A stretch of DNA of 64,000 nucleotides from a virus: IMG/VR virus record IMGVR_UViG_3300048694_001005, positions 116,566 to 180,565 of that record, one strand, 5' to 3'. Made by a program: the position numbers and the translations under genes. Shown here in pieces: positions 33,259 through 58,157 of the stretch; the first letter of the stretch is position 1; each line of letters opens with the position of its first letter. Below the pieces are notes generated by a model that was not told the origin of the DNA, made no database searches, and saw nothing but the letters and a program-made list of their open reading frames with translations.

Positions 33259-33556
33259 CAAAATCAAATTAATAACACCTCCAGATTCTATCAATGATAG
33301 TGGGTGTAATGTATTGCTAATTAACATAACCATGGAAAATTTGACTAAATTAATTAATGATTTATGGGATCATGATCTTGCTTTAAACCTATATTTGTGC
33401 AATAATTTAGATGATGCTTGGCTGGATACAGTCTTACCAAAGATGTCTAAAATATTAGCATATGATGTAGCCGCATACAGTGCAAAATTATGCGATCATA
33501 TTGGATTCGCTAAATATCGAAACTATGAGGAAATACTAAATGAACTTTCAACGTGA
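33251..33556 (+). CDS. Hypothetical protein
   Basis: GTG start overlapping upstream stop. Confidence 0.5.
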   Translation: MASKIKLITPPDSINDSGCNVLLINITMENLTKLINDLWDHDLALNLYLCNNLDDAWLDTVLPKMSKILAYDVAAYSAKLCDHIGFAKYRNYEEILNELST

Positions 33557-33566
33557 AGATAACAGG

Positions 33567-33785
33567 ATGTGTAAGGGTTCCACAGTAGAAGTTAAAAATG
33601 ATAACTTTGAAAAGGCTGTACGTAAATGGAAGAAAAAGGTACAGGAAAGTGGATTAATGAATGATTTACGTGAGCGCGAAGCTTATGAAAAACCCACGGT
33701 GAAACGCAAACGTCTTAAAAATCTGGCACGTCGTCGTTGGCAAAAATGGTTACAAAGCCAACAGCTTCCAGCCAAAAATTATTGA
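33567..33785 (+). CDS. rpsU: Ribosomal protein bS21 homolog
   Basis: V.VKNDNFEKAVRKWKKKV ... REAYEKPTVKRKR signature. Confidence 0.88.
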   Translation: MCKGSTVEVKNDNFEKAVRKWKKKVQESGLMNDLREREAYEKPTVKRKRLKNLARRRWQKWLQSQQLPAKNY

Positions 33786-38737: not shown

Positions 38738-38770
38738 AATCAAGCGGTTAGAAAATATTTCATCAAAATA

Positions 38771-38810
38771 ATAAAAAATGCTTGACCGCAGGTATAAATA
38801 AAGTTATATT
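38771..38810 (+). promoter_or_regulatory. Composite promoter of tRNA operon 1
   Basis: TTGACC(38782)-17-TATATT with embedded TATAAATA; 32 bp identical to 45857-45888. Confidence 0.8.
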
Positions 38811-38832
38811 AGATGCACAGTTAAACAAAGAG

Positions 38833-38934
38833 ATGAACATGAAAACCTATTTCAACAACCAAAGCAATCAGCAAAATCAGAGTGATAATAACTCTGATAG
38901 CGCACGGCTTTTGGGTGAAGGATGGGATGAATAA
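38833..38934 (+). CDS. Leader peptide rich in Asn/Gln/Ser/Asp (attenuator 1)
   Basis: MNMKTYFNNQSNQQNQSDNNSDSARLLGEGWDE*; codons 8-23 all N/Q/S/D. Confidence 0.7.
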   Translation: MNMKTYFNNQSNQQNQSDNNSDSARLLGEGWDE

Positions 38935-38957
38935 GTAACAACAGATTCCAACAAAGA

Positions 38958-38987
38958 CCCCAGAAGCCCAAAGCGACTGGGGTTTTT
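38958..38987 (+). terminator. Attenuator terminator 1
   Basis: CCCCAG/CTGGGG + TTTTT; left arm also pairs with 38906-38915. Confidence 0.8.
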
Positions 38988-38996
38988 CATTGCTGT

Positions 38997-39099
38997 ATGT
39001 GTGGCGCAACGCGGGCGCGGCAGGCACATTAAACATCTGTAAAAAGGGCGGCCTGGTGGATGAACTCCCTCTTGTGGGACGAAAAATACCAGCGTAATA
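38997..39099 (+). ncRNA. Unknown structured RNA, copy 1
   Basis: Aligns with 46120-46226 with compensatory changes in four helices. Confidence 0.7.
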
Positions 39100-39105
39100 T
39101 TTTGT

Positions 39106-39182
39106 AGGGGTGAGATGCGACGGGAAGCATACCAGCCTTTGAAGTTGGGTCTTAGTGGGTTCGAATCCCTCCACCCCCGCCA
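39106..39182 (+). tRNA. tRNA-Gln(TTG)
   Basis: Anticodon arm CCAGC-CTTTGAA-GTTGG; TTCGAAT; CCA. Confidence 0.85.
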
Positions 39183-39202
39183 AAATGTTAAGTGTTATTT
39201 GT

Positions 39203-39289
39203 TCCGGAGTACCCGAGTTGGTAGCAGGGGGCAGACTGTTAATCTGTTGCGCGGAAGCGCCATCGCTGGTTCGAGCCCAGCCTCCGGAG
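39203..39289 (+). tRNA. tRNA-Asn(GTT) with long variable arm, no encoded CCA
   Basis: GCAGA-CTGTTAA-TCTGT; acceptor TCCGGAG/CTCCGGA. Confidence 0.85.
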
Positions 39290-39303
39290 CAAATAACATT
39301 TAT

Positions 39304-39379
39304 ACCGTAGAGTCCACCGGGTGGTGATACCTGACTGTCTATCAGGTCGCGGCGGGTTCGAGTCCCGTCTACGGTGCCA
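39304..39379 (+). tRNA. tRNA-Asp(GTC)
   Basis: CCTGA-CTGTCTA-TCAGG; CCA. Confidence 0.88.
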
Positions 39380-39385
39380 AAATTT

Positions 39386-39472
39386 GGAGACGTGGCTGAA
39401 TTGGTAAAAGCGTCGGATTGCTACTCCGAAGACCGAAAGGTTGCGCAGGTTCGAACCCTGTCGTCTCCGCCA
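39386..39472 (+). tRNA. tRNA-Ser(GCT)
   Basis: TCGGA-TTGCTAC-TCCGA; long V arm; G73-CCA. Confidence 0.92.
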
Positions 39473-41029: not shown

Positions 41030-41175
41030 ACGCTCACTCCTGTGGAGGTCGGATGGGAGTGTCTGGTGCGTGTGGGCGAGCCGACGTCAATCTACATTGC
41101 TTCTTTTGATGATAGGCCAGAAAGTGGGTGCAGGGGGTTCGAATCCCTCAATCCCACCTCAAATATAAATACGTG

Positions 41176-41627: not shown

Positions 41628-41719
41628 GGAGAGTTGGCAGAGCCCGGCTTATTGTACCGCATTGGAAGTGCGGAGGTGCGTTTACGTGCCCGCGAGTTCG
41701 AATCTCGCACTCTCCGCCA
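41628..41719 (+). tRNA. tRNA-Ser(GGA)
   Basis: CCGCA-TTGGAAG-TGCGG; long V arm; CCA. Confidence 0.92.
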
Positions 41720-42000: not shown

Positions 42001-42171
42001 ATCGTTATTTACTTTGGTTGATGTACCAAATTAAGAATCTCCGCCTACAGGACGCTGTAGGTATGATAGCTGCGACTCCGATGGCACTGCGGGGTCTGGA
42101 AATACCGGATTTTAGTCTCCGGTGCAACCGTCAAGCCGGGAAAGAAACCATAACAGGTGTCAGCGAACAAT

Positions 42172-42243
42172 TGGGGTGAGACTGGGAGTCACACCTGCCT
42201 CTGAAGCAGGATGGAGTTGGTTCGAGCCCAACCGCCCCCGCCC
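42172..42243 (+). tRNA. tRNA-Gln(CTG)
   Basis: CCTGC-CTCTGAA-GCAGG; T arm GTTGG-TTCGAGC-CCAAC; ends CCC. Confidence 0.8.
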
Positions 42244-42266
42244 AGTGATTCAAGCTAAATACTGAC

Positions 42267-43442: not shown

Positions 43443-44367
43443 AATCATAACTGAGCTACGACGCCACGCTGATAGATTCGAGCGTAAACCCGAATTGCAG
43501 GAACTTTTTGATTATTTGAGAAGTTTTGATCAAAGCCAATTACAAAACATGTTTGTTCACGCATCGGAGATTCCCAAAATTGGATTGAAACCAACTAAGC
43601 CAATAACTTATGCTGGTACCATAGAACCACAGGGAATCTATACTTATAGAGCAATCGATTATCTTTCGTGGATGAAAAAACATGGTCTGACAGGGTTTGG
43701 CGGCTCTTTTCCCTTTGTTACCGTGCTAACTGTAAAATCTGACACAAAGTTTCTCGACGCGGAACATTACGAACAAATAATCGAAAAGTTGAAATCTCAA
43801 AGTGCAGATCCTCCTGGCTCAAAAAATTGGAAGATCACCGCGGCGCAGGTAAACCACTATCTTCAAAGATTGGGATATGGGTTTGTACAAAGAAGATTGC
43901 CCGGAAACCGAGTATCAAGCGCCAAAGAATATGTTATATTAAGCCCAAAATATATTGACACTATGAAACAATTTGAGGTGCATAAATCACCAGCTAACGG
44001 TTCTTATCCTATTCGTGATTTTGATGCTACCGCTTGGATCGCGTCCAAGGAGTATAGAAAAAAACTAAAGCCATACCAAGATTTCGCAAAAACACACCCC
44101 GAATTAAGGGGTTTTGATTTTAATGAGATGTCGCCACGCAATATTTCAGCACTAAAGTTATTGATTTATGCACTCAAGAATAAAAAAGTATTGGATCGAC
44201 GTCAGGAAGAAGCATTGGTTGCTTATAGAACAGCTGACACCCCTTCGGACCCAGAATATACTCACGAACTCTTTGACATCTACAAAAAAGAAGTATTAGA
44301 TCCGCAGGGTCTCAAGCCTAAACTGACGCCGACGGAGTTGGCTAATGTGGCTAGGGTAGTAAATTAA
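43429..44367 (+). CDS. Putative virion protein
   Basis: MKIHEIITE start. Confidence 0.55.
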   Translation: MKIHEIITELRRHADRFERKPELQELFDYLRSFDQSQLQNMFVHASEIPKIGLKPTKPITYAGTIEPQGIYTYRAIDYLSWMKKHGLTGFGGSFPFVTVLTVKSDTKFLDAEHYEQIIEKLKSQSADPPGSKNWKITAAQVNHYLQRLGYGFVQRRLPGNRVSSAKEYVILSPKYIDTMKQFEVHKSPANGSYPIRDFDATAWIASKEYRKKLKPYQDFAKTHPELRGFDFNEMSPRNISALKLLIYALKNKKVLDRRQEEALVAYRTADTPSDPEYTHELFDIYKKEVLDPQGLKPKLTPTELANVARVVN

Positions 44368-44378: not shown

Positions 44379-44468
44379 GGAGAGTTGGCAGAGCCCGGTT
44401 TATTGCACCTGATTCGAAATCAGACATACCGCAAGGTATCATAGGTTCAAATCCTATACTCTCCGCCA
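44379..44468 (+). tRNA. tRNA-Ser(CGA)
   Basis: CCTGA-TTCGAAA-TCAGA; long V arm; CCA. Confidence 0.9.
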
Positions 44469-45235: not shown

Positions 45236-45685
45236 ATGCTGATAATGATTAATTCAATTTCCGACCCCCTATTGAGATACATTAAGGACGATCCCGTCAG
45301 ACCAAATTTATCTACTGAGTTTCGAGTAACTGATAATAGAATTGTGTTAGCTTTGGTGGATCAAGATGATTTAGATATTAAGGTACGAGCAATGTGCTGT
45401 GTAAGTTTTCATGATTCGGTCCCACAGAGATTGGATGACTTGCTACAAACATCTGATTCCCCATCTATTTGTCTTTTCTATACAATCTGGAGTTACGTTG
45501 CTGGTGCAGGTAGAACGCTGATATTTGAAGCAGTGCGGCATATACAGGAAACACGACCCAATATACATAGATTTGTCACGCTCAGTCCCAAAACAGATAT
45601 GGCACGACGTTTTCACATACGTAATGGTGCAGTAGTGTTTAGGGAAAATCCCGAAACAGTCAATTACGAATACGTTAACAGTTGA
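45236..45685 (+). CDS. Hypothetical protein (possible GNAT-like)
   Basis: FYTIWSY..GAGR.LI, VTLSPKT.MA..FH..NGA. Confidence 0.5.
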   Translation: MLIMINSISDPLLRYIKDDPVRPNLSTEFRVTDNRIVLALVDQDDLDIKVRAMCCVSFHDSVPQRLDDLLQTSDSPSICLFYTIWSYVAGAGRTLIFEAVRHIQETRPNIHRFVTLSPKTDMARRFHIRNGAVVFRENPETVNYEYVNS

Positions 45686-45718
45686 CATTTATTTTAGATA
45701 TATGTATTATAGGAACAT

Positions 45719-45812
45719 GGAGAGTTGGCCGAGTGGTCGAAGGCACCTTCCTGCTAAGAAGGCATACGGGCATAAACCTGTATCGAGAGTTCGAATCTCT
45801 CACTCTCCGCCA
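45719..45812 (+). tRNA. tRNA-Ser(GCT), second copy
   Basis: CCTTC-CTGCTAA-GAAGG; own promoter TTGACA(45682)-17-TATTAT. Confidence 0.92.
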
Positions 45813-45856
45813 TAAAGTTTTGATTTGGTTGACATAAATAAATTTAACCAAAAGAA

Positions 45857-45896
45857 ATAAAAAATGCTTGACCGCAGGTATAAATAAAAGTATAGT
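45857..45896 (+). promoter_or_regulatory. Composite promoter of tRNA operon 2
   Basis: TTGACC(45868)-17-TATAGT with embedded TATAAATA; duplicate of 38771-38802. Confidence 0.8.
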
Positions 45897-45933
45897 AGCA
45901 ACATAGGAATTTAACTTTTAAACGGAAACAAAG

Positions 45934-46053
45934 ATGCAACACTTAAGAACACATATAGAGTTTACATTGAAACCAGCGATGACCGCACCGGCCTCATATT
46001 GGCTCGTGATTGGACGCGGTGAATGTGGATTCAGGGAGTTTTTGCAGATGTAG
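45934..46053 (+). CDS. Leader peptide of attenuator 2
   Basis: MQHLRTHIEFTLKPAMTAPASYWLVIGRGECGFREFLQM*; all amino acids except Asn and Asp. Confidence 0.65.
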   Translation: MQHLRTHIEFTLKPAMTAPASYWLVIGRGECGFREFLQM

Positions 46054-46079
46054 CATCAAACAGATTTAATATGCAAAGA

Positions 46080-46110
46080 CCCCGAAGATCCCAAAGACTT
46101 CGGGGTTTTT
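46080..46110 (+). terminator. Attenuator terminator 2
   Basis: CCCCGAAG/CTTCGGGG + TTTTT; left arm also pairs with 46027-46046. Confidence 0.82.
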
Positions 46111-46119
46111 CATTGTAGT

Positions 46120-46226
46120 TAGTGTGGCGCAACGAGGGCGCAGTGGGCACTATAAACATCCACTAAACGGGCGGCCTTGGTGATCAACGTGCGGCGATAA
46201 CGCATTAGTAAAACCCAAGCGTAATA
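46120..46226 (+). ncRNA. Unknown structured RNA, copy 2
   Basis: Paralog of 38997-39099 with covariation. Confidence 0.7.
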
Positions 46227-46351
46227 AAGTAGATTCTTTAAGGTCTGGCCGTTACCAGCCTGGCAAAAACGGCGACAGAATCTACTTTATTACACACATT
46301 CTGGAACCAAATGGGAGTGAAATGTCCGTGGCGGAGTGTGTTAAACAATAT

Positions 46352-46426
46352 GTATCGGTGGCTGAAAAGTTAGGCATCCGCCTGCAAAGCGGATTTATGG
46401 GATGGCAGAATTCCTCCGATACTCCA
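46352..46426 (+). tRNA. tRNA-Cys(GCA), atypical T loop
   Basis: TCCGC-CTGCAAA-GCGGA; acceptor GTATCGG/CCGATAC, T73-CCA. Confidence 0.8.
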
Positions 46427-46432
46427 AACAAT

Positions 46433-46522
46433 GGCGGGTTCGCATAGCGGCGATTGCAGTGGTCTCCAAAACCACCGATGAATATACCATCCACGGGAGT
46501 TCGAGTCTCTCACCCGTCGCCA
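46433..46522 (+). tRNA. tRNA-Trp(CCA) with long variable arm
   Basis: GTGGT-CTCCAAA-ACCAC; extra arm GATG/CATC; G73-CCA. Confidence 0.82.
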
Positions 46523-47184
46523 TACATTGAGTCAAATAACTTTATTCGTTGATGTAGGTCACTTAACGTGATTGACGATTTGGCTCGCTTTTTTTGATTT
46601 TCTTTATGTCGAACTAATTTACAGTTCGCGGGATGTGCGAGTAGTTTTGGATCAATTTTATTTTTGAACCCATCGCTTACCGAATAAAGATGATCACGTG
46701 AGATACCGTTAGTATTTTTAATTCCGGATCTAGATCCAGGAGTGGAATACCAACCAAACTCTTTAATCATTTCGGATGCCCCAATAAACCAATTTGGATA
46801 TTGGGATATTGAAAAATTAAATCGGCATTGATATCCGTATTGATTTTTTGTTTCCTGCACAGAAGGATGAATAGTTTTTACAGTTGGTGAATACCACTGC
46901 TTACCTGAAATCTTGCAGGTACAAAGGTAAATTTTTGTAAATGGTTCAACAAAGGCAATTTTGGATTTAACTCGTTCTTGCGGATTGCGTCGTTGGTGCT
47001 CTCCAAATTGGTTTTTGATAGTAGTTTTTTTACCGATGGTATATTTGAGTTTTGCTAGGTGGTCGTCGGTAATAACACGACTGTTGGCACAGCGACGAGA
47101 ACAGAATTTTTTGTTACCCCATTTACTGTAACTATTGAATACGATATTGCATTTGGGGCAGATGGCTTGAATATATTTGTTCAT
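46510..47184 (-). mobile_element. Putative homing endonuclease (Zn-finger + HNH-like SRDH domain)
   Basis: CPKC...FCSRRCANSR; GISRDHLYSVSDGF...HPANC; stop overlaps tRNA-Trp 3' end. Confidence 0.7.
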
Positions 47185-47294
47185 GTTTGTTTCCCTTAAA
47201 TAGTGCTGTAGGGACAGTTCAGAGTTTCCCCTGAATTGATTTGTTGTTCTAGCAACAAATCTTACCTACTCAAGTATTTATACCAGTTAAATAT

Positions 47295-47770
47295 CGGCTC
47301 AGTGATCGTGCGCAAGCACACAGACGGAGGGACTGCTGGAGAAAGTGTCCTGGGCGTGATGCGCCCGTCGACCATTCGGGTCTAACTCCAAAGAGCGACC
47401 ATTGTCGCAATACCCTGTTGCCAGTAATGGCTAACAAATGAAAAGCGTCCTAAAACGATCGGCGGGGCAAAACTTGCGACATAAAAATTAAGCCAAATGG
47501 CTACGGAATAGCGGTCAGCGCCAAGAGAGAACGTGAGCCACCCAGTGGGATGGGAGTTGAAGGCTCTTGGGACTCAGCCCCGCCCCCAACAGGGCTAGAC
47601 GCCAGAGTTGAGTACGCGACGTGTGTCCGAGGTAAAGAATTATGGTTGCACACTGAGTGAAGATGCCTCCTCTGCGCGAGACAATCCAGTGAGTCCCCTT
47701 AGCGAGGGATAGCTGGGCGCCCAACTTTCAATGCCGGCGGTTTCGCGTGTAACTCCACGTGCCGGCTCCA
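47295..47770 (+). ncRNA. Candidate large structured ncRNA
   Basis: About 480 nt GC-rich, no credible + strand ORF, many helices including long-range CTCAGTG/CACTGAG. Confidence 0.5.
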
Positions 47771-47778
47771 ATTATAAT

Positions 47779-47858
47779 GCCTCTTTAGCTCAGTCTGGTT
47801 CTAGAGCGTCGTGTTGATAACGCGGGGGTCCTTGGTTCAAATCCAAGAAGAGGCACCA
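47779..47858 (+). tRNA. tRNA-Ile(GAT)
   Basis: Loop TTGATAA; canonical cloverleaf; CCA. Confidence 0.92.
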
Positions 47859-47866
47859 ATTTAAAT

Positions 47867-47944
47867 GCTGCGATGGCAGAGGCGGTCCTATTGCGCCGGT
47901 CTGAAGAACCGGATATGTCTGTTCAACTCAGACTCGCAGCACCA
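47867..47944 (+). tRNA. tRNA-Phe(GAA)
   Basis: CCGGT-CTGAAGA-ACCGG; CCA. Confidence 0.9.
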
Positions 47945-47954
47945 TTACATTTTT

Positions 47955-48031
47955 GTCCCTATAGATTACGTTGGTTAGATCGCTGGCCCTTCAAGCCGGA
48001 AGACACGGATCGTCGCCGTGTAGGGACGCCA
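47955..48031 (+). tRNA. tRNA-Glu(TTC)
   Basis: CTGGC-CCTTCAA-GCCGG; atypical T loop; CCA. Confidence 0.82.
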
Positions 48032-48038
48032 ATATTAA

Positions 48039-48128
48039 GGGCGATACTGCCTGCGGGCGCGGGCGAGTATCCTGGAGTAAGGATATTTACAGCAAACCAA
48101 CTAATTGGTTCAACTCCAATATCGCCCG
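48039..48128 (+). ncRNA. tRNA-like RNA with anticodon arm replaced by ATCCTG/AGGAT-TACAGCAA domain
   Basis: Acceptor GGGCGAT/ATCGCCC, T arm ATTGG-TTCAACT-CCAAT. Confidence 0.65.
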
Positions 48129-48141
48129 CCTTATACAATAC

Positions 48142-48216
48142 GGGGACAGCGAAAGGTCGCGGATCTGCCTTGCAAGCAGATTGTCTACAAGGGAGCGTTA
48201 CCCTTGGTCTCCACCA
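48142..48216 (+). tRNA. tRNA-Ala(TGC)
   Basis: TCTGC-CTTGCAA-GCAGA; G3:T70; A73-CCA. Confidence 0.82.
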
Positions 48217-48242
48217 AATTAAATAGTGCGATACGATTCAGT

Positions 48243-48329
48243 GAAGGGTCGGCGAAGATGGTGAGTGTCGCGGCGGTCTGTAAAACCGTTACTTAAGAAC
48301 CGTAGTTTGTTCGAATCAAACACCCTTCA
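48243..48329 (+). tRNA. tRNA-Tyr(GTA), no encoded CCA
   Basis: GCGGT-CTGTAAA-ACCGT; long V arm; acceptor GAAGGGT/ACCCTTC. Confidence 0.82.
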
Positions 48330-49260
48330 CTGAGTCGTATTGATTTACCATAGAGATTAAATCTTCATATTTAATTGATGATTTAGATTTTTTTACTCCG
48401 TTGAGCCTGTGGGGCATTAATTCACAATTGCATGGATGTGAGATATAATAAGGATCATAATTATATTTGATGGCGTCTGATATAGATACTTTGTGATCCC
48501 TTGATAATCCATCAAGATTCCATCTGCCAGTTTTGCCCCCTGGAGCATAAAATCCTACCCTTTTTAAGAGCTCTATGTCGAATAAATCTGGATAATCATA
48601 AACGTTAAAGCAAAATCTATATTGCGATCGTTTATTTGAATGGAATTTCCGGCATGGGTTACAAAATTGCAACTGCGTTCTGGCTATGAATAATCCCTTG
48701 CAGTTTTTACAAGAGCAATAACAAATTTTGGAAAATGGACCAGATGGATTTACATTGATTCTTTTGATTCTACTTCTTCTATGTTTGTCGGCGCAACAAA
48801 GTTTCGCATCTTTTCTATTTAGATGTAATGATTTACATTTCCTGCATTTGAACGTTTTAGTTTTCTTATTGGATTTAGATTTTAAGGTTTGAGAAATCTT
48901 ACTTTTGGTTGTTTGGGTTACATTATACCCGTTCTCTATACGTTTTTTATTGGATATTTTGGCAGCACACTTATGTGAGCAAAATCGATTTTTTCTTTTT
49001 GAGTAGATTAAAACCTCACAACAATTTTCGCATTTTTTTGGAGATCTGCTATAATCGTTAATCCTTTGTGTTTGAGATTTTTCTAATTGGTTCTTACGAT
49101 TTAATATGGATTTTTGAGATCCTAATGAACGTTTAACCCTATTAAAGCCATCTTTTGTATGTGACGCTAGATAATGTGAGTGAATTCCTTTTGCAGATCT
49201 TACATCTTTACAAATTACGCAAGAGCAAAGTGCTGAAAAATAAATATGGTTGCTGGACAT
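48316..49260 (-). mobile_element. Putative homing endonuclease (Zn-fingers + SRDH domain)
   Basis: Multiple CxxC; LSRDHKVSISDA...HPCNC, paralog of 46510-47184; overlaps tRNA-Tyr 3' end. Confidence 0.7.
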
Positions 49261-49337
49261 GATTCGTTCCTTTCGAATTGTGTTGATGTCTAGGGCCAGT
49301 AGATGTTGACGCATCGTGACTGGCACTAAATTATTTA

Positions 49338-49366
49338 GTCAGGTTCGAATCCTACCTGATCCACCA
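49338..49366 (+). pseudogene. Orphan tRNA 3' fragment (T arm + acceptor strand + CCA)
   Basis: AGG-TTCGAAT-CCT-AC-CTGATCC-A-CCA with no matching 5' half upstream. Confidence 0.6.
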
Positions 49367-49398
49367 ATTAAAATGTTGCAGCGCACATAAATATCAGT

Positions 49399-49575
49399 AT
49401 GGATCGCGAAGACTTATTAAACGAAATCACAGCAGGTTTGCCCAGTGACAATGCTCACATAGCACGTTGTCTTGAACTAGCGGCTAATGAACCTGATGAT
49501 CTCATACGTGCATTTGCTCGATTGTGGCTGGAACATAACTGTGTAGCGATTGCTCGCAGACTGTTAGAACAGTAA
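49399..49575 (+). CDS. Small hypothetical protein (58 aa, not in ORF track)
   Basis: After CATAAATA; MDREDLLNEI... Confidence 0.55.
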   Translation: MDREDLLNEITAGLPSDNAHIARCLELAANEPDDLIRAFARLWLEHNCVAIARRLLEQ

Positions 49576-49581
49576 TCTCTT

Positions 49582-49659
49582 CGGTATATAGCGCAGCCCG
49601 GTAAGCGCACAGGTCTGGGGGGCCTGGGGTCGAAAGTTCAAATCTTTCTATACCGACCA
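49582..49659 (+). tRNA. tRNA-Pro(GGG)
   Basis: CAGGT-CTGGGGG-GCCTG; CCA. Confidence 0.9.
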
Positions 49660-49670
49660 ATTTAATCAAT

Positions 49671-49746
49671 GGTGACTATAGTGTAGTGGTCTGCACCGAA
49701 CGCTGTGAACGTTCTAGTGAGAGTTCAATCCTCTCTAGCCACCCCA
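49671..49746 (+). tRNA. tRNA-His(GTG)
   Basis: GAACG-CTGTGAA-CGTTC; G-1:C73; CCA. Confidence 0.9.
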
Positions 49747-49901
49747 AGAATTTCCTAGGCAGGCTGAACACCTGCGACAAAGTACTTCGCTCAGGTTAAT
49801 GGCCCAAACTCTACCGGCAAACACTCAATAGCTGAGCAGCATGGGGCAGGTCCAAATCCGTGTAATGCGGAGCTCAGTGGCGAAGGAAAGGAAACAGTTT
49901 T

Positions 49902-50024
49902 AGGATGCCTACAGCAATCAAATTGCCTTCTAAGCCGTGGACGGGGGTTCGATTCCCTCCGCTCTCCCCAATAATCTCTATGGAGAGTGTAGCTTAATGG
50001 TAAAGCACCGTAACGTGCATCCTG
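49902..50024 (+). ncRNA. Circularly permuted tRNA-like RNA (Arg TCT loop) inside AGGATGC/GCATCCT stem
   Basis: 3' half (CTTCTAA loop, T arm, CGCTCTC-C-CCA) precedes 5' half (GAGAGTG, D arm). Confidence 0.65.
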
Positions 50025-50055
50025 TGTTTATATTAAAATGGATACTAAATACTGC

Positions 50056-50772
50056 ATGCGCCTTTATGAAATAGACGAAGCAGGACTAAAAAAGCAAATA
50101 CTTGCACGGATTAATCAATCTGGACTACAGATGGTGCCTTTTAGGCTGCGTGATAATAGTGTATCACCTATAGTTTATTGGTCACAAAGATTCTTTGCTC
50201 TTGTAAAGCTGGGCACTGTAAACATGCCTTTTTATTTGAGTTCTGGAGAAGGCGGTAAGAAAAATGTTCCTGCTGGTAAATGGTATCCATTTTTTGGAAT
50301 AGGAGCAGATGGCTGGCTCAACAAATCTTCTGAGCAAGATATTGTCGCGTATTATAACAGCCCAATGTTAAAAAAGGTATCGCAGCAGTTGGATCAAATT
50401 ACTGGAGATTTGAGACCATACACCAACGTATTTCCACTAATAAACTCTACAACATTATTGGATATGGTAAACAAAGATTTAAACCCCTTGACTTACGATT
50501 CTCCAGAAGATGTGTCAAAAAATATTACGGATACAATTGCTAAAATACAGGGCCAAAACACACAGCAAAATACACAAAATACGGTGCAACCTCAATTGGT
50601 AAAACCTATCATAGATAAACTTATACAGGATTATGCCGGTAGGAAAATTGCTTGGAATGACATGATTAAGCAAATTGAAGACTTAATCAAAAAACGCCCG
50701 GACATAAAAGATAAAATCGTGAGTTATTTTAATTCACATCCCAGTATTAAGTCTTATATTAAAAATAGTTAG
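50056..50772 (+). CDS. Putative virion protein
   Basis: ATG 50056 after TAAATA; MRLYEIDE start. Confidence 0.55.
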   Translation: MRLYEIDEAGLKKQILARINQSGLQMVPFRLRDNSVSPIVYWSQRFFALVKLGTVNMPFYLSSGEGGKKNVPAGKWYPFFGIGADGWLNKSSEQDIVAYYNSPMLKKVSQQLDQITGDLRPYTNVFPLINSTTLLDMVNKDLNPLTYDSPEDVSKNITDTIAKIQGQNTQQNTQNTVQPQLVKPIIDKLIQDYAGRKIAWNDMIKQIEDLIKKRPDIKDKIVSYFNSHPSIKSYIKNS

Positions 50773-50784
50773 TCAAAAATTTAT

Positions 50785-50861
50785 GCCCCTGTACGTCAGT
50801 GGACTAGACTACCTCGCTTCGAACGAGGGAGACGGAGGTTCGAATCCTTCCAGGGGTGCCA
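50785..50861 (+). tRNA. tRNA-Arg(TCG)
   Basis: CCTCG-CTTCGAA-CGAGG; CCA. Confidence 0.9.
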
Positions 50862-50869
50862 AAGTTTTT

Positions 50870-50979
50870 AGGATCCTTCCAGCAACTAAAATCCAAACCG
50901 CGATACGTTGGTTCGAATCCAACCTGCTGGCAACAGCAGTAGCCAAGTGGTTAGGCAGCGGTCTCAAAACAGGATCCTG
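50870..50979 (+). ncRNA. Circularly permuted tRNA-like RNA with tetraloop-closed acceptor stem
   Basis: ACCGC, T arm, CTGCTG-GCAA-CAGCAG, D arm, GCGGT; flanked by AGGATCCT x2. Confidence 0.72.
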
Positions 50980-50987
50980 TATTATAT

Positions 50988-51065
50988 GTTCCCATCGTCT
51001 AGTCTGGCTTAGGACACCCGCCTTTCACGCGGACAACACCGGTTCAAATCCGGTTGGGAACGCCA
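50988..51065 (+). tRNA. tRNA-Glu(TTC), second copy
   Basis: Loop CTTTCAC; CCA. Confidence 0.9.
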
Positions 51066-51129
51066 AAATTGAATGACGCTTGACTTTGTATGTCAAATGT
51101 ATACAATAGAATGCAAAGGTAAATTTATC

Positions 51130-51531
51130 ATGGAAATGATTAAAACATATAACGCCTTGCGCGGACCAGTGAACAAATTTGAAGATCTACTGGGACGCAC
51201 GTTATATCGTGTTTGGGAAAATGGACAAGAACTACACTTGTATCTAACTGATACTCATTATGTGCGATTTTATCACGCGCAGGATTGTTGTGAAACTGTT
51301 GAGATTGAAGATATCTGCGGTGATTTGACAGATTTAGTGGGAGAACCTTTGACCGAAGCTGAGGAAGTTTACGGTTATACAGGCCCAGAAACTCATGATG
51401 AATCCTATACCTGGACTTTTTACAGATTCGCAACGCGTCGTGGTGCTGTTACAGTTCGTTGGTACGGCAGCAGCAATGGCTATTACGGCGAAGGTGTAAA
51501 TGTAGACATCGTAGGAAATTATGAAGGTTAA
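51130..51531 (+). CDS. Conserved phage hypothetical protein
   Basis: H.QDCCE.V.IEDI.GDL.DLVG.P, YTWTFY, SNGYYGE. Confidence 0.65.
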   Translation: MEMIKTYNALRGPVNKFEDLLGRTLYRVWENGQELHLYLTDTHYVRFYHAQDCCETVEIEDICGDLTDLVGEPLTEAEEVYGYTGPETHDESYTWTFYRFATRRGAVTVRWYGSSNGYYGEGVNVDIVGNYEG

Positions 51532-51535
51532 AAAT

Positions 51536-51621
51536 GCCCCAGTGGTGGAATTGGAAGACACGCAAGTTTCAGAAGCTTGTGCCCACAAGGCCTAGGAGTT
51601 CGAGTCTCCTCTGGGGCACCA
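51536..51621 (+). tRNA. tRNA-Leu(CAG)
   Basis: CAAGT-TTCAGAA-GCTTG; long V arm; CCA. Confidence 0.9.
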
Positions 51622-51643
51622 TTTATTCAACGAGGAGTTTGAT

Positions 51644-52135
51644 ATGGCGCGACGCAAGGCAGATAAGCCTCAGGTAAAGCAATATGGCTACAAGATAGCT
51701 GTGGAAAGACACTGCGAAGATTCATATCACAGTGGCAAACAATACGGCGAGTGGCGCGAAAGCTACAGCAACCACTTGAGCTCCATTGCCACACACGATG
51801 ACGAATATCCTGATGTGGTTTCCATTCACAAAATTGAACCTGGACAAGCGGCATTGGTGGTATGGGTTGAATGGAGCACGGGTGATAGTTTTGGTCACTC
51901 TGATCGTGGTTGCACTGAGATCATTGGGCTGTTCCGTGATATGAAGTCTGCAGAATCTTTGCGTCAGCAGATTGAATCCTGGCGTCGTAACGATAAGGCT
52001 AAAAAGTGGGATGAGCAGCATTCGTATCACTTTAAAACTCCGGATGGTCAGGAATTTACTTCAGGCTTCGCACCCTGGTCCGGATACTTTGACAGTTTGG
52101 ATTCAGTAAACATTGACTCAGTAGGTGTATTTTGA
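51644..52135 (+). CDS. Hypothetical protein
   Basis: SD GAGGAG; 163 aa. Confidence 0.65.
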   Translation: MARRKADKPQVKQYGYKIAVERHCEDSYHSGKQYGEWRESYSNHLSSIATHDDEYPDVVSIHKIEPGQAALVVWVEWSTGDSFGHSDRGCTEIIGLFRDMKSAESLRQQIESWRRNDKAKKWDEQHSYHFKTPDGQEFTSGFAPWSGYFDSLDSVNIDSVGVF

Positions 52136-52249
52136 AATCAGCAGTGACAATGGCGGCGTGGACTCAACGGCAGCGTAGGATTCGTAAAACTGCGCGTCGT
52201 TGGGCCCGCAAAATGAAACATAGAAATTTAATTTATCAGGAGTAACACA

Positions 52250-52375
52250 ATGAAGGCAACGTATCGCAAGATCAACGATCGCACTCAAAACTCCAGCAAG
52301 TATCACAAGAAGGATGGCACCGCTGTTCGTGCCCAGCTTAAGGAACAGCTTCGCAAAGAAACTAACAAGGAGTAA
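52250..52375 (+). CDS. Small basic protein (41 aa, not in ORF track)
   Basis: SD AGGAG; MKATYRKINDRTQNSSKYHKKDGT... Confidence 0.55.
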   Translation: MKATYRKINDRTQNSSKYHKKDGTAVRAQLKEQLRKETNKE

Positions 52376-52466
52376 CATTATGAAAGCGAGTAAACCATAG
52401 TGTCACTTTAAGTCCCGTCGTTGGGTTTAAAGTTGGCACGGTAAATCAATTTTAAACGACAACGAT

Positions 52467-52544
52467 GGGGGTGTAGCAAATGTTGACTTTGCATCGGACC
52501 TTTAATCCGAATAGACGTGGGTTTGATTCCCACCGCCCTCACCA
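52467..52544 (+). tRNA. tRNA-Lys(TTT)
   Basis: TCGGA-CCTTTAA-TCCGA; CCA. Confidence 0.85.
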
Positions 52545-52549
52545 TTAAC

Positions 52550-52624
52550 TGGTCGCAAGCTTTAATGGTGAAGCAGTAGGCTCTTACCCTACAGAACACG
52601 GATCGTTACCGTGGCGACCAACCA
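52550..52624 (+). tRNA. tRNA-Lys(CTT)
   Basis: GTAGG-CTCTTAC-CCTAC; CCA. Confidence 0.88.
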
Positions 52625-52633
52625 TAATAGAGC

Positions 52634-52708
52634 CCGTTGTGTATGCTAAACGGTACAGCCCACGCAGTGGTGCGTTAGATGCTGGGTTCGAGTCCCAGCC
52701 ACAGCGGC
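52634..52708 (+). ncRNA. tRNA-like RNA lacking an anticodon loop
   Basis: CCGTTGTG/CACAGCGG stem, T arm CTGGG-TTCGAGT-CCCAG, ACGCA-GTGG-TGCGT tetraloop arm. Confidence 0.5.
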
Positions 52709-52731
52709 CTCTACTATGGTTTTTAAACAAT

Positions 52732-52808
52732 ACGCCTGTAGCTCAACTGGAAAGAGCGTTGGTCTACGAAGCCGAAGGTTGGGGGTTCGAATCCCTCCAG
52801 GCGTGCCA
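52732..52808 (+). tRNA. tRNA-Arg(ACG)
   Basis: TTGGT-CTACGAA-GCCGA; CCA. Confidence 0.92.
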
Positions 52809-52846
52809 ATTACATTTGACTAATATAAATATTAGTCATACAATGC

Positions 52847-53707
52847 ATGTTTATGACAGAACGAATTTTAATCATGGGCCTGCCCGGTGCTGGTAAAACC
52901 ACACTGGCTGCGGCACTAAAAGAATATATTGAAACTAATAGCAATCCTAACCACATGCGGTTAGAACAACTGATGTTTGCCGACGGTATACCCAGTGTTT
53001 GGCATGCTAAGGTGGACTGGTTTAACGCTGATGATGTCAGACGTAAATTCAACGACTGGGATTTCAGTAGTGAAGGAAGAATACGGCAAAGTCTACGCAT
53101 GTTTCAGTTTGCAGTGGCCTGTACCGGAGATTTTGTTATTTGCGATTTCGTTTGCCCGTTGCAGGAAATGCGTAACAATTTTAAAGCTGACTGGACAGTA
53201 TGGGTAGATACCATAGAGGCCAGCAGATATAGTGATACTAACAAAGCATTTGTTAATCCCACAGTCTATGACTTCAGGGTAACAGAAAAGAACGCAGATC
53301 ACTGGGCCGCATTTATTGGTGACCACATTTTACGCAACCAACGTAGACCAACCTTTGACTGGCGCAAGCCTACCGTGCAAATGCTAGGCCGTTGGCAACC
53401 CTGGCATCAGGGTCATAAAGCGTTGTTTGAACGACTGTTGAAGCGTACTGGACAAGTAGTAATTCAAATACGTGATTGCCAGGGCTGGAATGGCAGTAAT
53501 CCATTTGCCCTGGAACAGGTAAAGAGCTTTATACGTCGTGATCTTGATCCAAAATATCAAGGTCAGTATGAAATACAAGTAGTACCCAATATTGTTCATA
53601 TAGGTTGGGGGCGCGGTGTTGGATATACTTCAGGCGAGGAACAGTTTGACGAGTCTATTACTAGTATCAGTGCTACAGAGATACGCAAAGATCTGGGATT
53701 AACTTAA
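52847..53707 (+). CDS. Adenylylsulfate kinase-like P-loop domain fused to cytidyltransferase-like domain
   Basis: MGLPGAGKTT, NADDVR, DFVCP; C-terminal LGRWQPWHQGH, YGRG-like WGRGVGY. Confidence 0.75.
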   Translation: MFMTERILIMGLPGAGKTTLAAALKEYIETNSNPNHMRLEQLMFADGIPSVWHAKVDWFNADDVRRKFNDWDFSSEGRIRQSLRMFQFAVACTGDFVICDFVCPLQEMRNNFKADWTVWVDTIEASRYSDTNKAFVNPTVYDFRVTEKNADHWAAFIGDHILRNQRRPTFDWRKPTVQMLGRWQPWHQGHKALFERLLKRTGQVVIQIRDCQGWNGSNPFALEQVKSFIRRDLDPKYQGQYEIQVVPNIVHIGWGRGVGYTSGEEQFDESITSISATEIRKDLGLT

Positions 53708-54406
53708 GTGTTGACAGAATCACTGATTGTTTTCACCACACCAAGATCAGGATCAACTTTATTATGTGATTGGTTACGGGCATTTTTACCTGGACATTAT
53801 CATGGTTTGGAACCCGACAGAAATGATAAACTTAAACTTCTCACCACTTCAACTGGAAAATTTTGGACTAAAGAAAATTATGAAAAACTTTCAACGTACG
53901 AAAAGTTGCTTATTATCGAAAAGTACAGACCATTCGTAGTAAAAGTTTTCCCATATGATGCAGCCTTATGTAATTTGATGACTACTAGAAAAGTAATTTT
54001 ATTAAATAGAAAAGACATCAAAAAACAAACATTATCACATGCTATTGCAGCCAAAACTAATAAGTTTAACGGAGCCAGCACGAATACAATTAGTGATTTG
54101 ATGTTGAGCAAGGAAGAATTTTTTCAAGTAATTTTTAAGCAATTGGCATCCGTACGGGATTTTGATAACATGAAATCTCGTATATCATCACAAGTAATAC
54201 TAGAACTAAATTACGAAGATTTTGAAAATGATCTTAACAATTTATTTGTAGCATTGCAGCCAGTATTGGGTTTGACCGAAGAACATCGCAAACTTATACC
54301 TAATAACTACGTTAAACAAAATATTAATCACGAAAGCAAAATTGCTAATATTGAATTGTTCAATGATTTGTGGGAAAAACATAAACATATAAGTGGTAGA
54401 TATTAA
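53708..54406 (+). CDS. Sulfotransferase (Stf0-like)
   Basis: TTPRSGSTLL 5'-PSB loop; L.RKD..KQ.LS; YEDF. Confidence 0.75.
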   Translation: MLTESLIVFTTPRSGSTLLCDWLRAFLPGHYHGLEPDRNDKLKLLTTSTGKFWTKENYEKLSTYEKLLIIEKYRPFVVKVFPYDAALCNLMTTRKVILLNRKDIKKQTLSHAIAAKTNKFNGASTNTISDLMLSKEEFFQVIFKQLASVRDFDNMKSRISSQVILELNYEDFENDLNNLFVALQPVLGLTEEHRKLIPNNYVKQNINHESKIANIELFNDLWEKHKHISGRY

Positions 54407-54413
54407 ATATTCA

Positions 54414-55148
54414 ATGCACAATATACCAAGACAAGTACATGTTTGCTGGCATGACAAAAATATAGTAAACAATACATCACCACTTGTTCTGAACGGGATA
54501 CGTAATTTGATAGATCTTAATCCTACTTGGACTATAACTATCCATAACGATAATGATATAGACCTATATCTTAAACAGGAATTAGAAAACAGTGACTATG
54601 ATTTGGTCAAAGACAGTCACATAGTAGCACGTTCAGATGTTTGGAGATTGCTTAAACTATATCGCGAAGGCGGTTTGTATGTAGATATAGATCGTTTCTG
54701 TAATAAAAATTTAGATGTGGTAATTGGCGAGAAAAAATGTATTTTACCCATAATGAATGATTACGACTTTAGTCAGGATTTTATGGCCAGCGAACCACAG
54801 AATCCCATATATCTAACTGCATTGATTATGAACCTTGAACGTAGACGTCAGGGTCATACTAATACATATTTTTTGGGTGCGCAAACCTATATGCATGCAG
54901 TAACTAAAGAAGTATGTGGTGAAATTATCAACACAGATCCTGGGTCAGAAGTATTTGCTGAAATTCGACAACAATTGGCAATGATGAACTTTATAGGTAC
55001 TAGCACCGAATTACCGCCCTGGCATACTGTTATATATGAACATGTACAGGAAACTTGGCGTGGCTCCAGTGATTGTATGGACTGGGAACAGTTAAAACGC
55101 AATTTATATGCAGACTACAATGTTAAACACTGGACTGGAGAATGGTAA
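54414..55148 (+). CDS. DxD glycosyltransferase (OCH1/capsule-synthesis-like)
   Basis: IPRQVH, SDVWRL..LY.EGGLYVDID. Confidence 0.8.
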   Translation: MHNIPRQVHVCWHDKNIVNNTSPLVLNGIRNLIDLNPTWTITIHNDNDIDLYLKQELENSDYDLVKDSHIVARSDVWRLLKLYREGGLYVDIDRFCNKNLDVVIGEKKCILPIMNDYDFSQDFMASEPQNPIYLTALIMNLERRRQGHTNTYFLGAQTYMHAVTKEVCGEIINTDPGSEVFAEIRQQLAMMNFIGTSTELPPWHTVIYEHVQETWRGSSDCMDWEQLKRNLYADYNVKHWTGEW

Positions 55149-55813
55149 TGCACACTGCTAAAGTACCCCGAATCTTTCAACCATTCTATTGTCCCGATCT
55201 TATTAGATTGGGCAAAGATTATGATGGCGGTTATCTAGCCAACAAACAGGATATAACTGCCGCATTACTATTAGTGAGTTTAGGAGTTGGTACTGATATC
55301 AGTTTTGAACGTGATTTCACAGACCTTAACAATTGTGATGTAAAAGCCTGTGATAAAGAATTACACAATATTGATGCAGCTACACTGGAATATTTTACAG
55401 GCGGTCGTCAACTGTGTCAGCAGGAGATAACTGCTGGCACACTGTATAGTATGTTAGCTACCGACCACATATTTTTAAAATGCGACATAGAAGGCGCAGA
55501 ATACAGTATCTTGGATGAACTTATCCAACATGCACATAAATTTACTGGCATGGTCATAGAGTTTCATGATTGCAATAGACCGGAAAATTACAATTCATTA
55601 TTGAACTTTATTGCAAAGATACCACTGCGGTTGGTACATACACATGTGAACAATTATTTTTACTACAAAACCGATACTGGACCTATTCCGGATATTTTTG
55701 AACTTAGTTTCAGCGCAGGATTGAACGTATTATATAAAACACAATTACGATTACCACATGAATTAGATATGCCAAATAATCCACAAGACGGTGAATTTGA
55801 ATTGAAGTTTTGA
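55148..55813 (+). CDS. FkbM-like methyltransferase
   Basis: RLGK.YDGGY, SLGVG.DISFE, LKCDIEGAEY. Confidence 0.7.
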   Translation: MHTAKVPRIFQPFYCPDLIRLGKDYDGGYLANKQDITAALLLVSLGVGTDISFERDFTDLNNCDVKACDKELHNIDAATLEYFTGGRQLCQQEITAGTLYSMLATDHIFLKCDIEGAEYSILDELIQHAHKFTGMVIEFHDCNRPENYNSLLNFIAKIPLRLVHTHVNNYFYYKTDTGPIPDIFELSFSAGLNVLYKTQLRLPHELDMPNNPQDGEFELKF

Positions 55814-55905
55814 ACTACTTAGATTTGACATAAACGTCATAGCATGTTAGACTGTGTAAATAGTATGTAAGAAATAGGCAGTAGATAGTTACATAAAGAA
55901 TAAAT

Positions 55906-55980
55906 GGGGCCAAAGTGTTGTTGGGGGCACACAAGATTTGCATTCTTGAAGGCGGGATTCGAGCTCCCGTGGCTCCACCA
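55906..55980 (+). tRNA. tRNA-Ala(TGC), second copy
   Basis: CAAGA-TTTGCAT-TCTTG; G3:T70; A73-CCA. Confidence 0.85.
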
Positions 55981-56003
55981 GAATTCAGTAACAAAGGAAC
56001 AAT

Positions 56004-56075
56004 TGCGGGGTAGTGTACAGAGCACGTCAGGCTCATAACCTGGAGGACCGTGAGCATTTCCGGCGACCGCAACCA
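56004..56075 (+). tRNA. tRNA-Met(CAT), initiator-like, degenerate T arm
   Basis: TCAGG-CTCATAA-CCTGG; TGCGG/CCGCA; CCA. Confidence 0.6.
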
Positions 56076-56080
56076 AATTT

Positions 56081-56136
56081 AGGATGGCTACAGCAAATTA
56101 AAAACACACCTTGTAAATGTGAAAAAACCCATCCTG
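56081..56136 (+). ncRNA. AGGAT-TACAGCAA element enclosing an anticodon stem-loop (TGT)
   Basis: AGGATGG/CCATCCT stem; inner CACAC-CTTGTAA-ATGTG. Confidence 0.6.
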
Positions 56137-56161
56137 TAGATTTAAATGTAAATAGTATTAT

Positions 56162-56235
56162 GCGGGTATGATGTAATGGTAGCCTATAACCTTGCCAAGG
56201 TTGATGCGAGAGTTCGATTCTCTCTACCCGCTCCA
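56162..56235 (+). tRNA. tRNA-Gly(GCC)
   Basis: TAACC-TTGCCAA-GGTTG; T73-CCA. Confidence 0.92.
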
Positions 56236-56241
56236 AGATTT

Positions 56242-56318
56242 GCCCTGGTGACGGAACTGGCATACGTGCATGACTTAGGATCATGATTTTGTGGGTTCGA
56301 CTCCCACCTAGGGCACCA
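56242..56318 (+). tRNA. tRNA-Leu(TAG), short variable region
   Basis: CATGA-CTTAGGA-TCATG; 5-nt V loop; CCA. Confidence 0.88.
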
Positions 56319-56339
56319 AATTTAATAAAGGAGGCAGTT

Positions 56340-57008
56340 ATGTTGCGCATGCTGGAAATACGTGCCGCCGAAGGCGGTGAAGATAGTAAATTGTTTGTCA
56401 ACGATTTGGCGCAGGCTTATCTGCGTCTAGCACAGCGAGCTGGCTGAACTGCCCGCCTGCTGGACCAACGTTCGGGAATTTGCACAATGCAGATCTCTGG
56501 CGCTGATTTAGCAGGCTTAGATAATGAACCCGGTGGTCACAGAATACAACGAATACCACCAACAGAACGACGCGGACGAGTGCATACCAGCACCGTTACC
56601 GTAGCCATATTAGATCCCGACAGGCCACAGACCACGATACTGGATCGTGATCTACGTATTGAATGGTACAGTGGTACTGGTGCGGGCGGGCAACATCGAA
56701 ACAAGCACCAAAACAGTTGCAGGATTACTCACTTACCCACAGGTATCATGGCCACCGCGCAATGTCGCAGTCGTGAAAATAGTTTAACTGAAGCACGAAG
56801 CTCTATTGTGCAGCGTGTAACTGCGGCGGCGCAGAATCGTGTCAACACTGAGCAAGCCGAGGATAGACGTCAGCAAGTGGGATCTGGTATGCGTGGCGAC
56901 AAGATTAGGACGTATATGGTTAGATATAATTCTGTAAAGGATCATGCAACAAATAAAGAAATGAGATTTGATGATTTTATGAAAGGTAACATCAATAAAT
57001 TATGGTAA
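56340..57008 (+). CDS. Class I peptide release factor (RF1-like, lacking N-terminal domain) with in-frame TGA at codon 36
   Basis: SD GGAGG; EIRAAEGGEDS..F, TGA at 56445-56447, EPGGHRIQRIPPTERRGRVHTS, GAGGQHRNK. Confidence 0.85.
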
Positions 57009-57010
57009 GA

Positions 57011-57889
57011 TTACCATTTTATTTCTTTATTCTCTAATACCAAGAATACATTATATCCTAAATTTTTCAATGAATTTAACTTACAGGTATTTCTTTTTTC
57101 GATGTCTGATCCAGGCTTGTTATTATTCCAGGTCCAGTTAGATTTAATTTCAAAAATATTTATATCATCTATGATAAAATCAGGGAAACACATTCTATCT
57201 TGTTGCCGAGTTACATCAAAATACCAGAATCCTTTGCCGCGACGAACATGATTTTCAATTTCGCTGTTGAAAATATCGTATTGTTTATGCAAGAAGCTTA
57301 ATTCAAGAGACCCTTGATAATACAATGATGTATTTTTGTATTTGCACATTTTATATCCGCGAAACATACCTTTTCGCAATGCAGTCTCAAATTTTGTCAA
57401 CCCGTTTCTATCTATTTTATTCATAGTTTCTAATCGTCGGCGAATTGATGTTTCGTGGATTGTTAAACCGGTTTCTGCATTCATTGTATTTTTCTTTGTC
57501 TGACCTCCACGTTTTGCGGCGTCGCTTGAAAGTGAATCATTTCGTTTTGTTTTTGATATTTTATTAGCAGTATTTTCGGCGATAGTTCTACCATTTGGTG
57601 TTAAAGTATTTTTCTTGGTATCGTGTGCTTTATATGCTCTGGCTACATCTAATGGTAATCCGGTTTGTGCATCAATTTTGGTTGTCCTAGTTAATCTAAT
57701 TTTTTCGAGTCTGAGTTCATTTGATGTTTTGCCAGTAATCGGGTCTATTTTTTTAAAAGCATTTTTAATTGATAAACCGGTTTTCTTTGACTTTTCTGGG
57801 CAATTGTTGGCGTGCTTAGAACACCTCCATTTTTTGGTATTTTTAGAATAGAATTTTGCTTCTTTGCCGCATCCATGCTCGCATAACAT
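57011..57889 (-). mobile_element. Free-standing endonuclease (Zn ribbon, repeats, TnsA-like PD-(D/E)XK C-terminus)
   Basis: CEHGCG...CSK..N.CP; D..TG repeats; YQGSLE...PDF....FEIKS; own SD and ATAAATA on - strand. Confidence 0.75.
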
Positions 57890-58153: not shown

Positions 58154-58157
58154 ATTT

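Follow-up and report, generated by a model that had tools for sequence, protein, structure and literature searches.

The genome of a giant phage whose DNA was found in freshwater metagenomes contains what is very likely a ribosome-mediated attenuator, which would sense how fast Asn, Gln, Asp and Ser codons are decoded and thereby control transcription of the cognate tRNA genes. This function is inferred from conservation and modelling; expression data are not available, and a search of sequencing runs listed no RNA run that contains this sequence. The element is located in a window of 64,000 nt (the whole stretch of DNA that was analyzed, to which all positions refer) of the virus contig IMGVR_UViG_3300048694_001005 (180,565 nt). 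In this cassette, termed cassette A, a sigma70-like promoter (38782-38810) is followed by an ORF (38833-38934), a hairpin with a U tract (38953-38991) and four tRNA genes (39106-39472), all on the plus strand. The virus record is linear and contains a T4-type major capsid gene. A search of the contig, whose completeness is only about 51%, did not reveal a gene for an RNA polymerase beta subunit. A phage-encoded ribosomal protein bS21 is located at 33540-33785, and its neighboring ORFs look, by eye, like Hsp20 and ClpS.

Promoter, leader and terminator of cassette A

Promoter A (38757-38810) comprises an A-rich upstream stretch, a -35 element TTGACC (38782-38787), a spacer of 17 nt and a -10 element TATATT (38805-38810). 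The spacer contains a T4-late-type TATAAATA (38793-38800). Codons 8-23 of the leader ORF (38854-38901), the putative control codons, form a run of 16 that all encode Asn, Gln, Ser or Asp. Nowhere in the six frames of the 180,565-nt contig is there a longer run of this kind, the next having a length of 10, and 10 is also the longest run in 20,000 dinucleotide shuffles of the ORF. With the proteome frequency of these four amino acids (0.228) as p, p^16 amounts to 5e-11. The run draws on varied synonymous codons, and some of the choices (TCT, CAG AGT) double as sequence of an inner hairpin.

Within the predicted protector structure (1:2; 38846-38926), positions 38859-38865 pair with 38907-38914 and 38846-38852 with 38920-38926. 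It encloses the predicted inner hairpin of 8 bp (38876-38898), which is possibly a pause hairpin. The minimum free energy of 38817-38991 is -47.5 kcal/mol (z = -4.8). The antiterminator strand (2; 38906-38915) pairs with 38959-38968, and the strength of this duplex (-18.3) is reached by 0.4% of genomic 48-mers and 4% of synonymous recodings. The intrinsic terminator (3:4; 38953-38991) is predicted and not mapped. Its stem (38958-38963/38977-38982; -19.0 kcal/mol) is followed by a short U tract of five U (38983-38987) and then CAUU. It was missed by a pattern scan, probably owing to its 13-nt loop. No promoter-like site was detected between this terminator and tRNA-Gln in the promoter pattern scan.

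A first-pass annotation had claimed a promoter, a 33-codon ORF with the run, an antiterminator pairing 10/10 with the left arm of a terminator, and four tRNA genes, with AGY at three of the four Ser codons of the leader. The run, the terminator, the tRNAs and the Ser codons held, the fourth Ser codon being TCT. The 33 codons held as an ORF; the ATG at 38839 is the likelier start, because AAAGAG lies 6 nt upstream and is also the usual motif of the leader family, and it gives 31 codons. The claimed pairing held only partly, as the duplex has nine Watson-Crick pairs and one G-U, and the terminator stem accounts only for 38959-38963 of the paired arm, the remaining positions being in the loop of the terminator. 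Taken by itself, the promoter match (10/12) does not stand out from chance in the pattern scan, with 34 sites found versus 32.7 expected. It is backed by a nearly identical copy in a paralogous cassette B (45842-45898) and by sigma70-like promoters before 66 of 70 family leaders.

tRNA genes behind leader A

The terminator is followed by genes for tRNA-Gln(TTG) (39106-39182), tRNA-Asn(GTT) (39203-39290), tRNA-Asp(GTC) (39304-39379) and tRNA-Ser(GCT) (39386-39472), and further ones on the same strand extend towards cassette B. A tRNA-Ser(GGA) (41628-41719) reads the TCT of leader A, and an atypical tRNA-Gln(CTG) (42171-42244; relaxed ARAGORN setting, Rfam tRNA E=0.1, cloverleaf fold) reads its CAG; the co-transcription of both with the first four is inferred. 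Between the two cassettes there are eight tRNAs, the atypical one included, and all are specific for Gln, Asn, Asp or Ser. The two most distal ones, tRNA-Ser(CGA) (44379-44468) and a second tRNA-Ser(GCT) (45719-45812), might have their own promoters (a possible one at 44234-44262 and a promoter-like site at 45682-45710, respectively), so their regulation by cassette A is uncertain. All 16 control codons of leader A are read by unit-A tRNAs and none by the array behind cassette B.

A GNAT/MCD-like protein (PF05292 in homologues) is encoded at 45236-45685; its family has more than 4,000 members, and tRNA genes occur at about half of the fetched loci. Two non-coding stretches of the tRNA region (41030-41165 and 47290-47780) are without Rfam match, and the first ends in a T-arm-like hairpin.

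A paralogous cassette with the complementary tRNA set

A BLAST search against the own contig revealed a second promoter-leader-terminator-RNA cassette at 45842-46230, also on the plus strand, and no third one. Promoter B (45868-45896) is a paralog of promoter A. Leader ORF B (45934-46053; 39 codons) is entirely different in sequence from leader A and encodes 18 amino acids, without Asn and Asp. Its 29 control positions are filled by 28 distinct codons, against a null mean of 20.6. Terminator B (46072-46112), with an antiterminator at about 46027-46047, precedes array B (46352-62769), which harbors about 33 tRNAs for 17 amino acids and none for Gln, Asn or Asp.

Array B reads 26 of 28 leader B window codons, and the single Ser codon (TCA) is read by tRNA-Ser(TGA), the sole Ser tRNA of this array. 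One Gln codon (codon 2) within the leader B window runs counter to a clean partition. Leader codons and tRNAs are partitioned between cassettes A and B (Fisher p = 2.4e-6). The leader-terminator pairings are likewise specific to each cassette, with -18.3 (A) and -17.1 (B) for the own pairs versus -10.1 and -11.6 crosswise.

Several further elements were observed in or near array B. Two tRNA-like elements with Cys(GCA) anticodon loops (46352-46420, the first tRNA of the array, and 48143-48217) were missed by default ARAGORN. At a relaxed threshold, tRNA-like calls with a CUA (amber) anticodon were obtained at 59998-60086 and in two other contigs (L438:7690 and L441). An RNase P RNA-like match (58158-58416; Rfam RF00373, E=3.6e-8) and weak Y RNA-like (YrlA) matches (49935-50012, 52655-52785 and 60867-60979) are below the gathering score. 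A release-factor-like gene (56340-57008) was called as two pieces in the strain contigs L456/L457 (PCRF and RF-1 domains).

Strain variation

Leader A is identical or synonymous in four strain contigs. Near-identical contigs showed a synonymous change that leaves the protector pairing intact and an Ala-to-Val substitution located outside the run. The tRNAs behind this leader, on the other hand, differ in three of seven near-identical contigs (L311, L313 and L315), so that the alleles of tRNA-Gln, tRNA-Asn and tRNA-Asp, and for tRNA-Asp also the copy number, vary among strains. L311 has the order Gln, Asn, Asp, Asn, Asp, Ser, and its first five tRNAs are only 51-62% identical to the window alleles; L313 and L315 contain added alleles. 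All replaced or added tRNAs have Gln, Asn, Asp or Ser anticodons. Array-B tRNAs are 99-100% identical in strain contigs, except for one value of 0.67 near a contig end. Two of these contigs share samples with variant unit-A contigs. Some array-B strain contigs were picked for identical proteins, which biases this comparison towards identity.

The exchange of tRNA bodies while their anticodons stay constant suggests pressure from a tRNA-targeting defence, by analogy with published phage tRNAs (PMC11555353); the agent has not been identified. The choice of the Gln/Asn/Asp/Ser set may also be historical, because other lineages split their tRNAs differently. Nitrogen limitation would fit Gln, Asn and Asp but not Ser. 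The four tRNAs for Gln, Asn, Asp and Ser all have a guanine discriminator (G73), the determinant of CdiA-CT NC101 (PMC5737660). G73 was rejected as the basis of the split, as Glu, Trp and Arg tRNAs with G73 occur in array B.

A family of leaders in related phages

Search patterns derived from the RNA that follows the terminator yielded 120 metagenome and 117 viral loci. The approximately 230 motif hits gave 137 distinct leaders, 70 of which were tested for antiterminator geometry. The family members are related, and counts are thus not independent. Other routes to relatives failed: searches of GenBank phages returned only tRNA matches and short chance matches, none of 80 loci of MazG homologues, inspected for neighbor synteny, contained a tRNA within 3 kb, and no cassette came up at the loci of homologues of the upstream protein of 111 aa. 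The leader A peptide was absent from the protein collection searched. In viral contigs, neither a degenerate codon pattern for leader A nor a window-specific pattern had a match, and a third pattern gave chance matches only. The nine matches of the motif pattern in GTDB genomes were not backed by the motif HMM.

The usual layout is a promoter, a leader of 35-55 codons, a terminator, an optional small ORF, the RNA motif and a tRNA array. The small ORF (about 55-60 codons, e.g. L170:1758) is present in most members and absent here. The antiterminator is inside the leader ORF at a median of -25 to -16 from the stop codon in the 70 leaders (-26 to -17 in cassette A), and the terminator starts 21-35 nt past the stop codon (23 nt in cassette A, with a different sequence). 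Mean duplex strength is -16.6 for own pairs, -14.7 for cross pairs and -8.6 for shuffled sequences, while the best of 10,000 permutations reached -15.5. The position of the antiterminator is therefore conserved across the family, and its sequence co-varies with that of the terminator.

The leaders are also unusually complete. All 20 amino acids are present before the antiterminator, within about 40 codons, in 98 of 137 (chance about 1% each), and a leader contains on average 19.2 amino acids versus a null of 15.4. Among 28 representatives with less than 50% identity, 13 contain all 20 (null probability 0.003-0.02 each) and 25 exceed the null. The arrays behind such complete leaders are mixed and serve many amino acids. 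Of the 137, leader B alone lacks both Asn and Asp, and no second lineage with a leader of the Gln/Asn/Asp/Ser type was found among the approximately 230 motif hits. Typical leaders contain a Trp and an Asp-Arg-Thr-Pro-Glu motif, which is absent from both window leaders. Six leaders start 0-7 nt past a -10 box (L437:3295 and 13465, L438:6047 and 8497, L441:10070 and L442:7393) and are likely translated from leaderless mRNAs, as inferred from sequence alone.

Several contigs contain complementary splits of their own. In L437 a 21-codon leader precedes Gly, Glu, Leu, Asp, Ala, Val, Thr, Pro, Met and Asn tRNAs and a 40-codon leader precedes the rest (Fisher p=5e-8). A related split occurs in L441/L440 (Fisher p=1.6e-5), and in L438 Glu and Asp are separated together with a few others (Fisher p=0.021). 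The short leaders of L437 and L438 carry their own terminators and antiterminators. Since the short leaders of L437 and L441/L440 are homologous, splits are present in about three independent lineages, the window included. In L442 both the leader and its array lack Ala, Gly, Pro, Thr and Val; the corresponding tRNAs form a separate cluster, for which no leader was found. Several incomplete leaders predicted tRNAs missing from their own arrays, although predictions from single missing residues often failed. Thus leader content tracks the identity of downstream tRNAs in the window genome and three other contigs. The comparison of leader content with downstream tRNAs in related phages, proposed in the first-pass annotation as a check, was therefore passed, and the homologues keep the leader ORF.

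Folding model of the proposed switch

The switch was modelled by removing the nucleotides under a stalled ribosome before folding, with equilibrium and the footprint being assumed. As naked RNA, cassette A forms the protector helix and the terminator (terminator probability 1.0). Stalls at codons 3-6, which do not match the tRNAs, leave this probability at 0.96-1.0, stalls at codons 11-15 lower it to 0.02-0.5, those at codons 16-20 are mixed (0.5-0.9), and from codons 21-22, the end of the run, it is again 1.0. The model thus predicts that a stall inside the run favors readthrough. Cassette B also terminates as naked RNA and has a broad readthrough window (codons 2-29). In the family, stalls at least 14 codons before the stop codon give a median terminator probability below 0.1, and stalls 10 or fewer codons before it give 1.0. 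Naked RNA favors the antiterminator in 74% of family leaders, so most do not favor the terminator.

A conserved RNA after the terminator

The terminator is followed by a conserved, phage-specific pseudoknotted RNA (38997-39095), with a second copy behind terminator B (46120-46228). Over 122 instances, the core positions of its three helices pair in 98-100%, each helix draws on several pair types, and the pseudoknot is retained. There is no Rfam match. The topology of the pseudoknot is like that of HK022 putL (PMC9378689), with which the RNA also shares an AAAC(C)AU strand followed by GGCGG and GAU, but it differs in an extra hairpin in the 5' part and in the second stem. A single descriptor recognizes HK022 putL, the two copies in the window and 145 of 220 family hits, and neither 481 kb of phage DNA nor shuffled sequences gave a match. 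However, this descriptor is a post-hoc one, made with knowledge of HK022 putL, and the family profile HMM does not reach HK022 putL. The function of the RNA is inferred; the balance tips slightly in favor of a put-like antiterminator that would aid polymerase across a long block, by analogy with put RNAs, which bind the zinc-binding domain of the RNA polymerase beta-prime subunit and suppress pausing and termination. It cannot be the switch itself because it is located 3' of the terminator. Long hairpins that end before an ACACATT motif occur after the RNA motif (46222-46297, L311:2155-2195 and L170) and are possibly processing sites.

Proposed mechanism and alternative explanations

The attenuator reading of the first-pass annotation is supported by the conserved leader ORF, the position and covariation of the antiterminator, the tracking of tRNA identity and the folding model. 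Its picture was incomplete, as cassette A is one of a complementary pair and a specialized member of a large family. The anatomy, conservation, covariation and codon/tRNA partition are shown, whereas leader translation, readthrough and feedback are inferred without transcript, ribosome or reporter evidence. In the proposed mechanism RNA polymerase, probably that of the host, would start near 38817 and a ribosome would translate leader A. A ribosome running through the control codons would cover the antiterminator strand, the terminator would fold and a transcript of about 170 nt would be released. A stall at about codons 11-19 would block the protector strand and leave the antiterminator free to pair with the left arm of the terminator, so that polymerase would read into the tRNA genes. 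The tRNAs made would restore decoding and close the switch in a direct negative feedback. Cassette B would do likewise for the remaining tRNAs. The trigger would most likely be the loss of host tRNAs during infection; that anticodon nucleases or starvation make these tRNAs limiting, as the annotation proposed, is still inference only.

The cassette could also be a real attenuator that senses a general slowing or uncoupling of ribosomes (host shut-off, ribosome damage or nascent-peptide arrest), with codon identity being secondary. The Trp and Asp-Arg-Thr-Pro-Glu motif of typical leaders could be an arrest signal, and in the family leaders that favor the antiterminator as naked RNA a lack of translation would give readthrough. 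However, both window leaders lack the motif and terminate as naked RNA, and complementary partitions in several lineages would be unexpected if codon identity were irrelevant. This explanation is therefore considered unlikely. Less plausible still is a leaky constitutive terminator that sets the tRNA level, with the ORF producing a functional or junk low-complexity peptide and the match being due to chance or history. The short U tract is in its favor, the strong structure of the leader region could constrain the sequence, and few strain variants are on hand for testing selection on the ORF. Against it speak the fixed position and the covariation of the antiterminator, as seen in 70 leaders, the completeness of leaders for all 20 amino acids and the partition tests. 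It is also improbable that, instead of a ribosome, an antitermination protein of the phage or a T-box-like RNA that binds tRNA opens the terminator. A conserved structured RNA does adjoin the terminator, but it is 3' of it and cannot act before it, and the switchable strand is part of a conserved ORF, where the length of a ribosome footprint separates it from the control codons. No T-box specifier loop or antiterminator bulge was matched in Rfam at E up to 1 in 36000-64000.

The attenuator that senses codon-specific decoding thus remains the preferred reading. In a bolder version, large phages would run a modular feedback of tRNA supply, in which the codons of every tRNA block are spelled out in the leader that gates it. 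In this lineage the Gln/Asn/Asp/Ser set would have been split off as a high-gain switch since a host defence or a shortage hits it, which would drive the allele turnover, and the put-like RNA on the readthrough transcript would give processivity across a multi-kb block. This extension could as easily prove wrong as right. Why and when phages use their own tRNAs is a long-standing question, and a codon-matched attenuator implies supply on demand when decoding fails. The leader text would name the tRNAs that a phage monitors, and it becomes testable whether phage tRNAs stand in for host tRNAs that are lost. Likely host defences that target tRNAs may become readable from the sequence (here Gln, Asn and Asp, with alleles turning over between strains). 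The leaders also offer compact sensors for any chosen tRNA set.

Comparison with known systems

Phage tRNAs are known to replace tRNAs lost during infection, as in T5 against retron-Eco7 and in T1 and T7 against PrrC, and their expression level matters (PMC11555353). That study credits a strong promoter for tRNA expression and does not mention attenuation, whereas expression from cassette A looks conditional. The first-pass annotation knew of no described attenuator of tRNA genes, and no published account was found in the literature searched, the coverage of which is incomplete. The pheST attenuator and T-boxes sense the supply of aminoacyl-tRNA and control parts of the translation machinery by termination and antitermination. 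Their targets are synthetase or biosynthesis genes, unlike the phage tRNA genes here, and T-boxes bind tRNA directly without a ribosome. In Pseudomonas, translation of the PA5471.1/armZ leader gates translation-rescue genes, in a manner similar to that proposed for cassette A; attenuators of this type, however, respond to a general disturbance of ribosomes, without a codon match to tRNA products.

Closest are the attenuators of amino acid operons such as trpL, hisL and pheL and the multivalent thrL and ilvGMEDA. Cassette A resembles them in that regulatory codons fill a short leader ORF, in an intrinsic terminator (3:4) that excludes a 2:3 antiterminator, and in a modelled scheme by which stalling favors readthrough (PMC1183508); a 1:2 hairpin, also part of that scheme, is predicted only. 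A control region that consists wholly of regulatory codons is a high-sensitivity design (PMC1183508). Cassette A meets the criteria of a short ORF, cognate codons, a terminator just past the ORF and an exclusive antiterminator within reach of the ribosome; that of an amino acid biosynthesis or synthetase target is not met, as the downstream genes are tRNAs, followed by FkbM, HNH and unknown proteins. Very likely, and pending expression data, attenuation has here been carried over from biosynthetic operons to the direct control of tRNA genes. In contrast to the amino acid operons, the system is phage-encoded, its products are the sensed tRNAs instead of biosynthetic enzymes, and its leaders sense from 4 to 20 amino acids, partitioned between blocks of tRNA genes.
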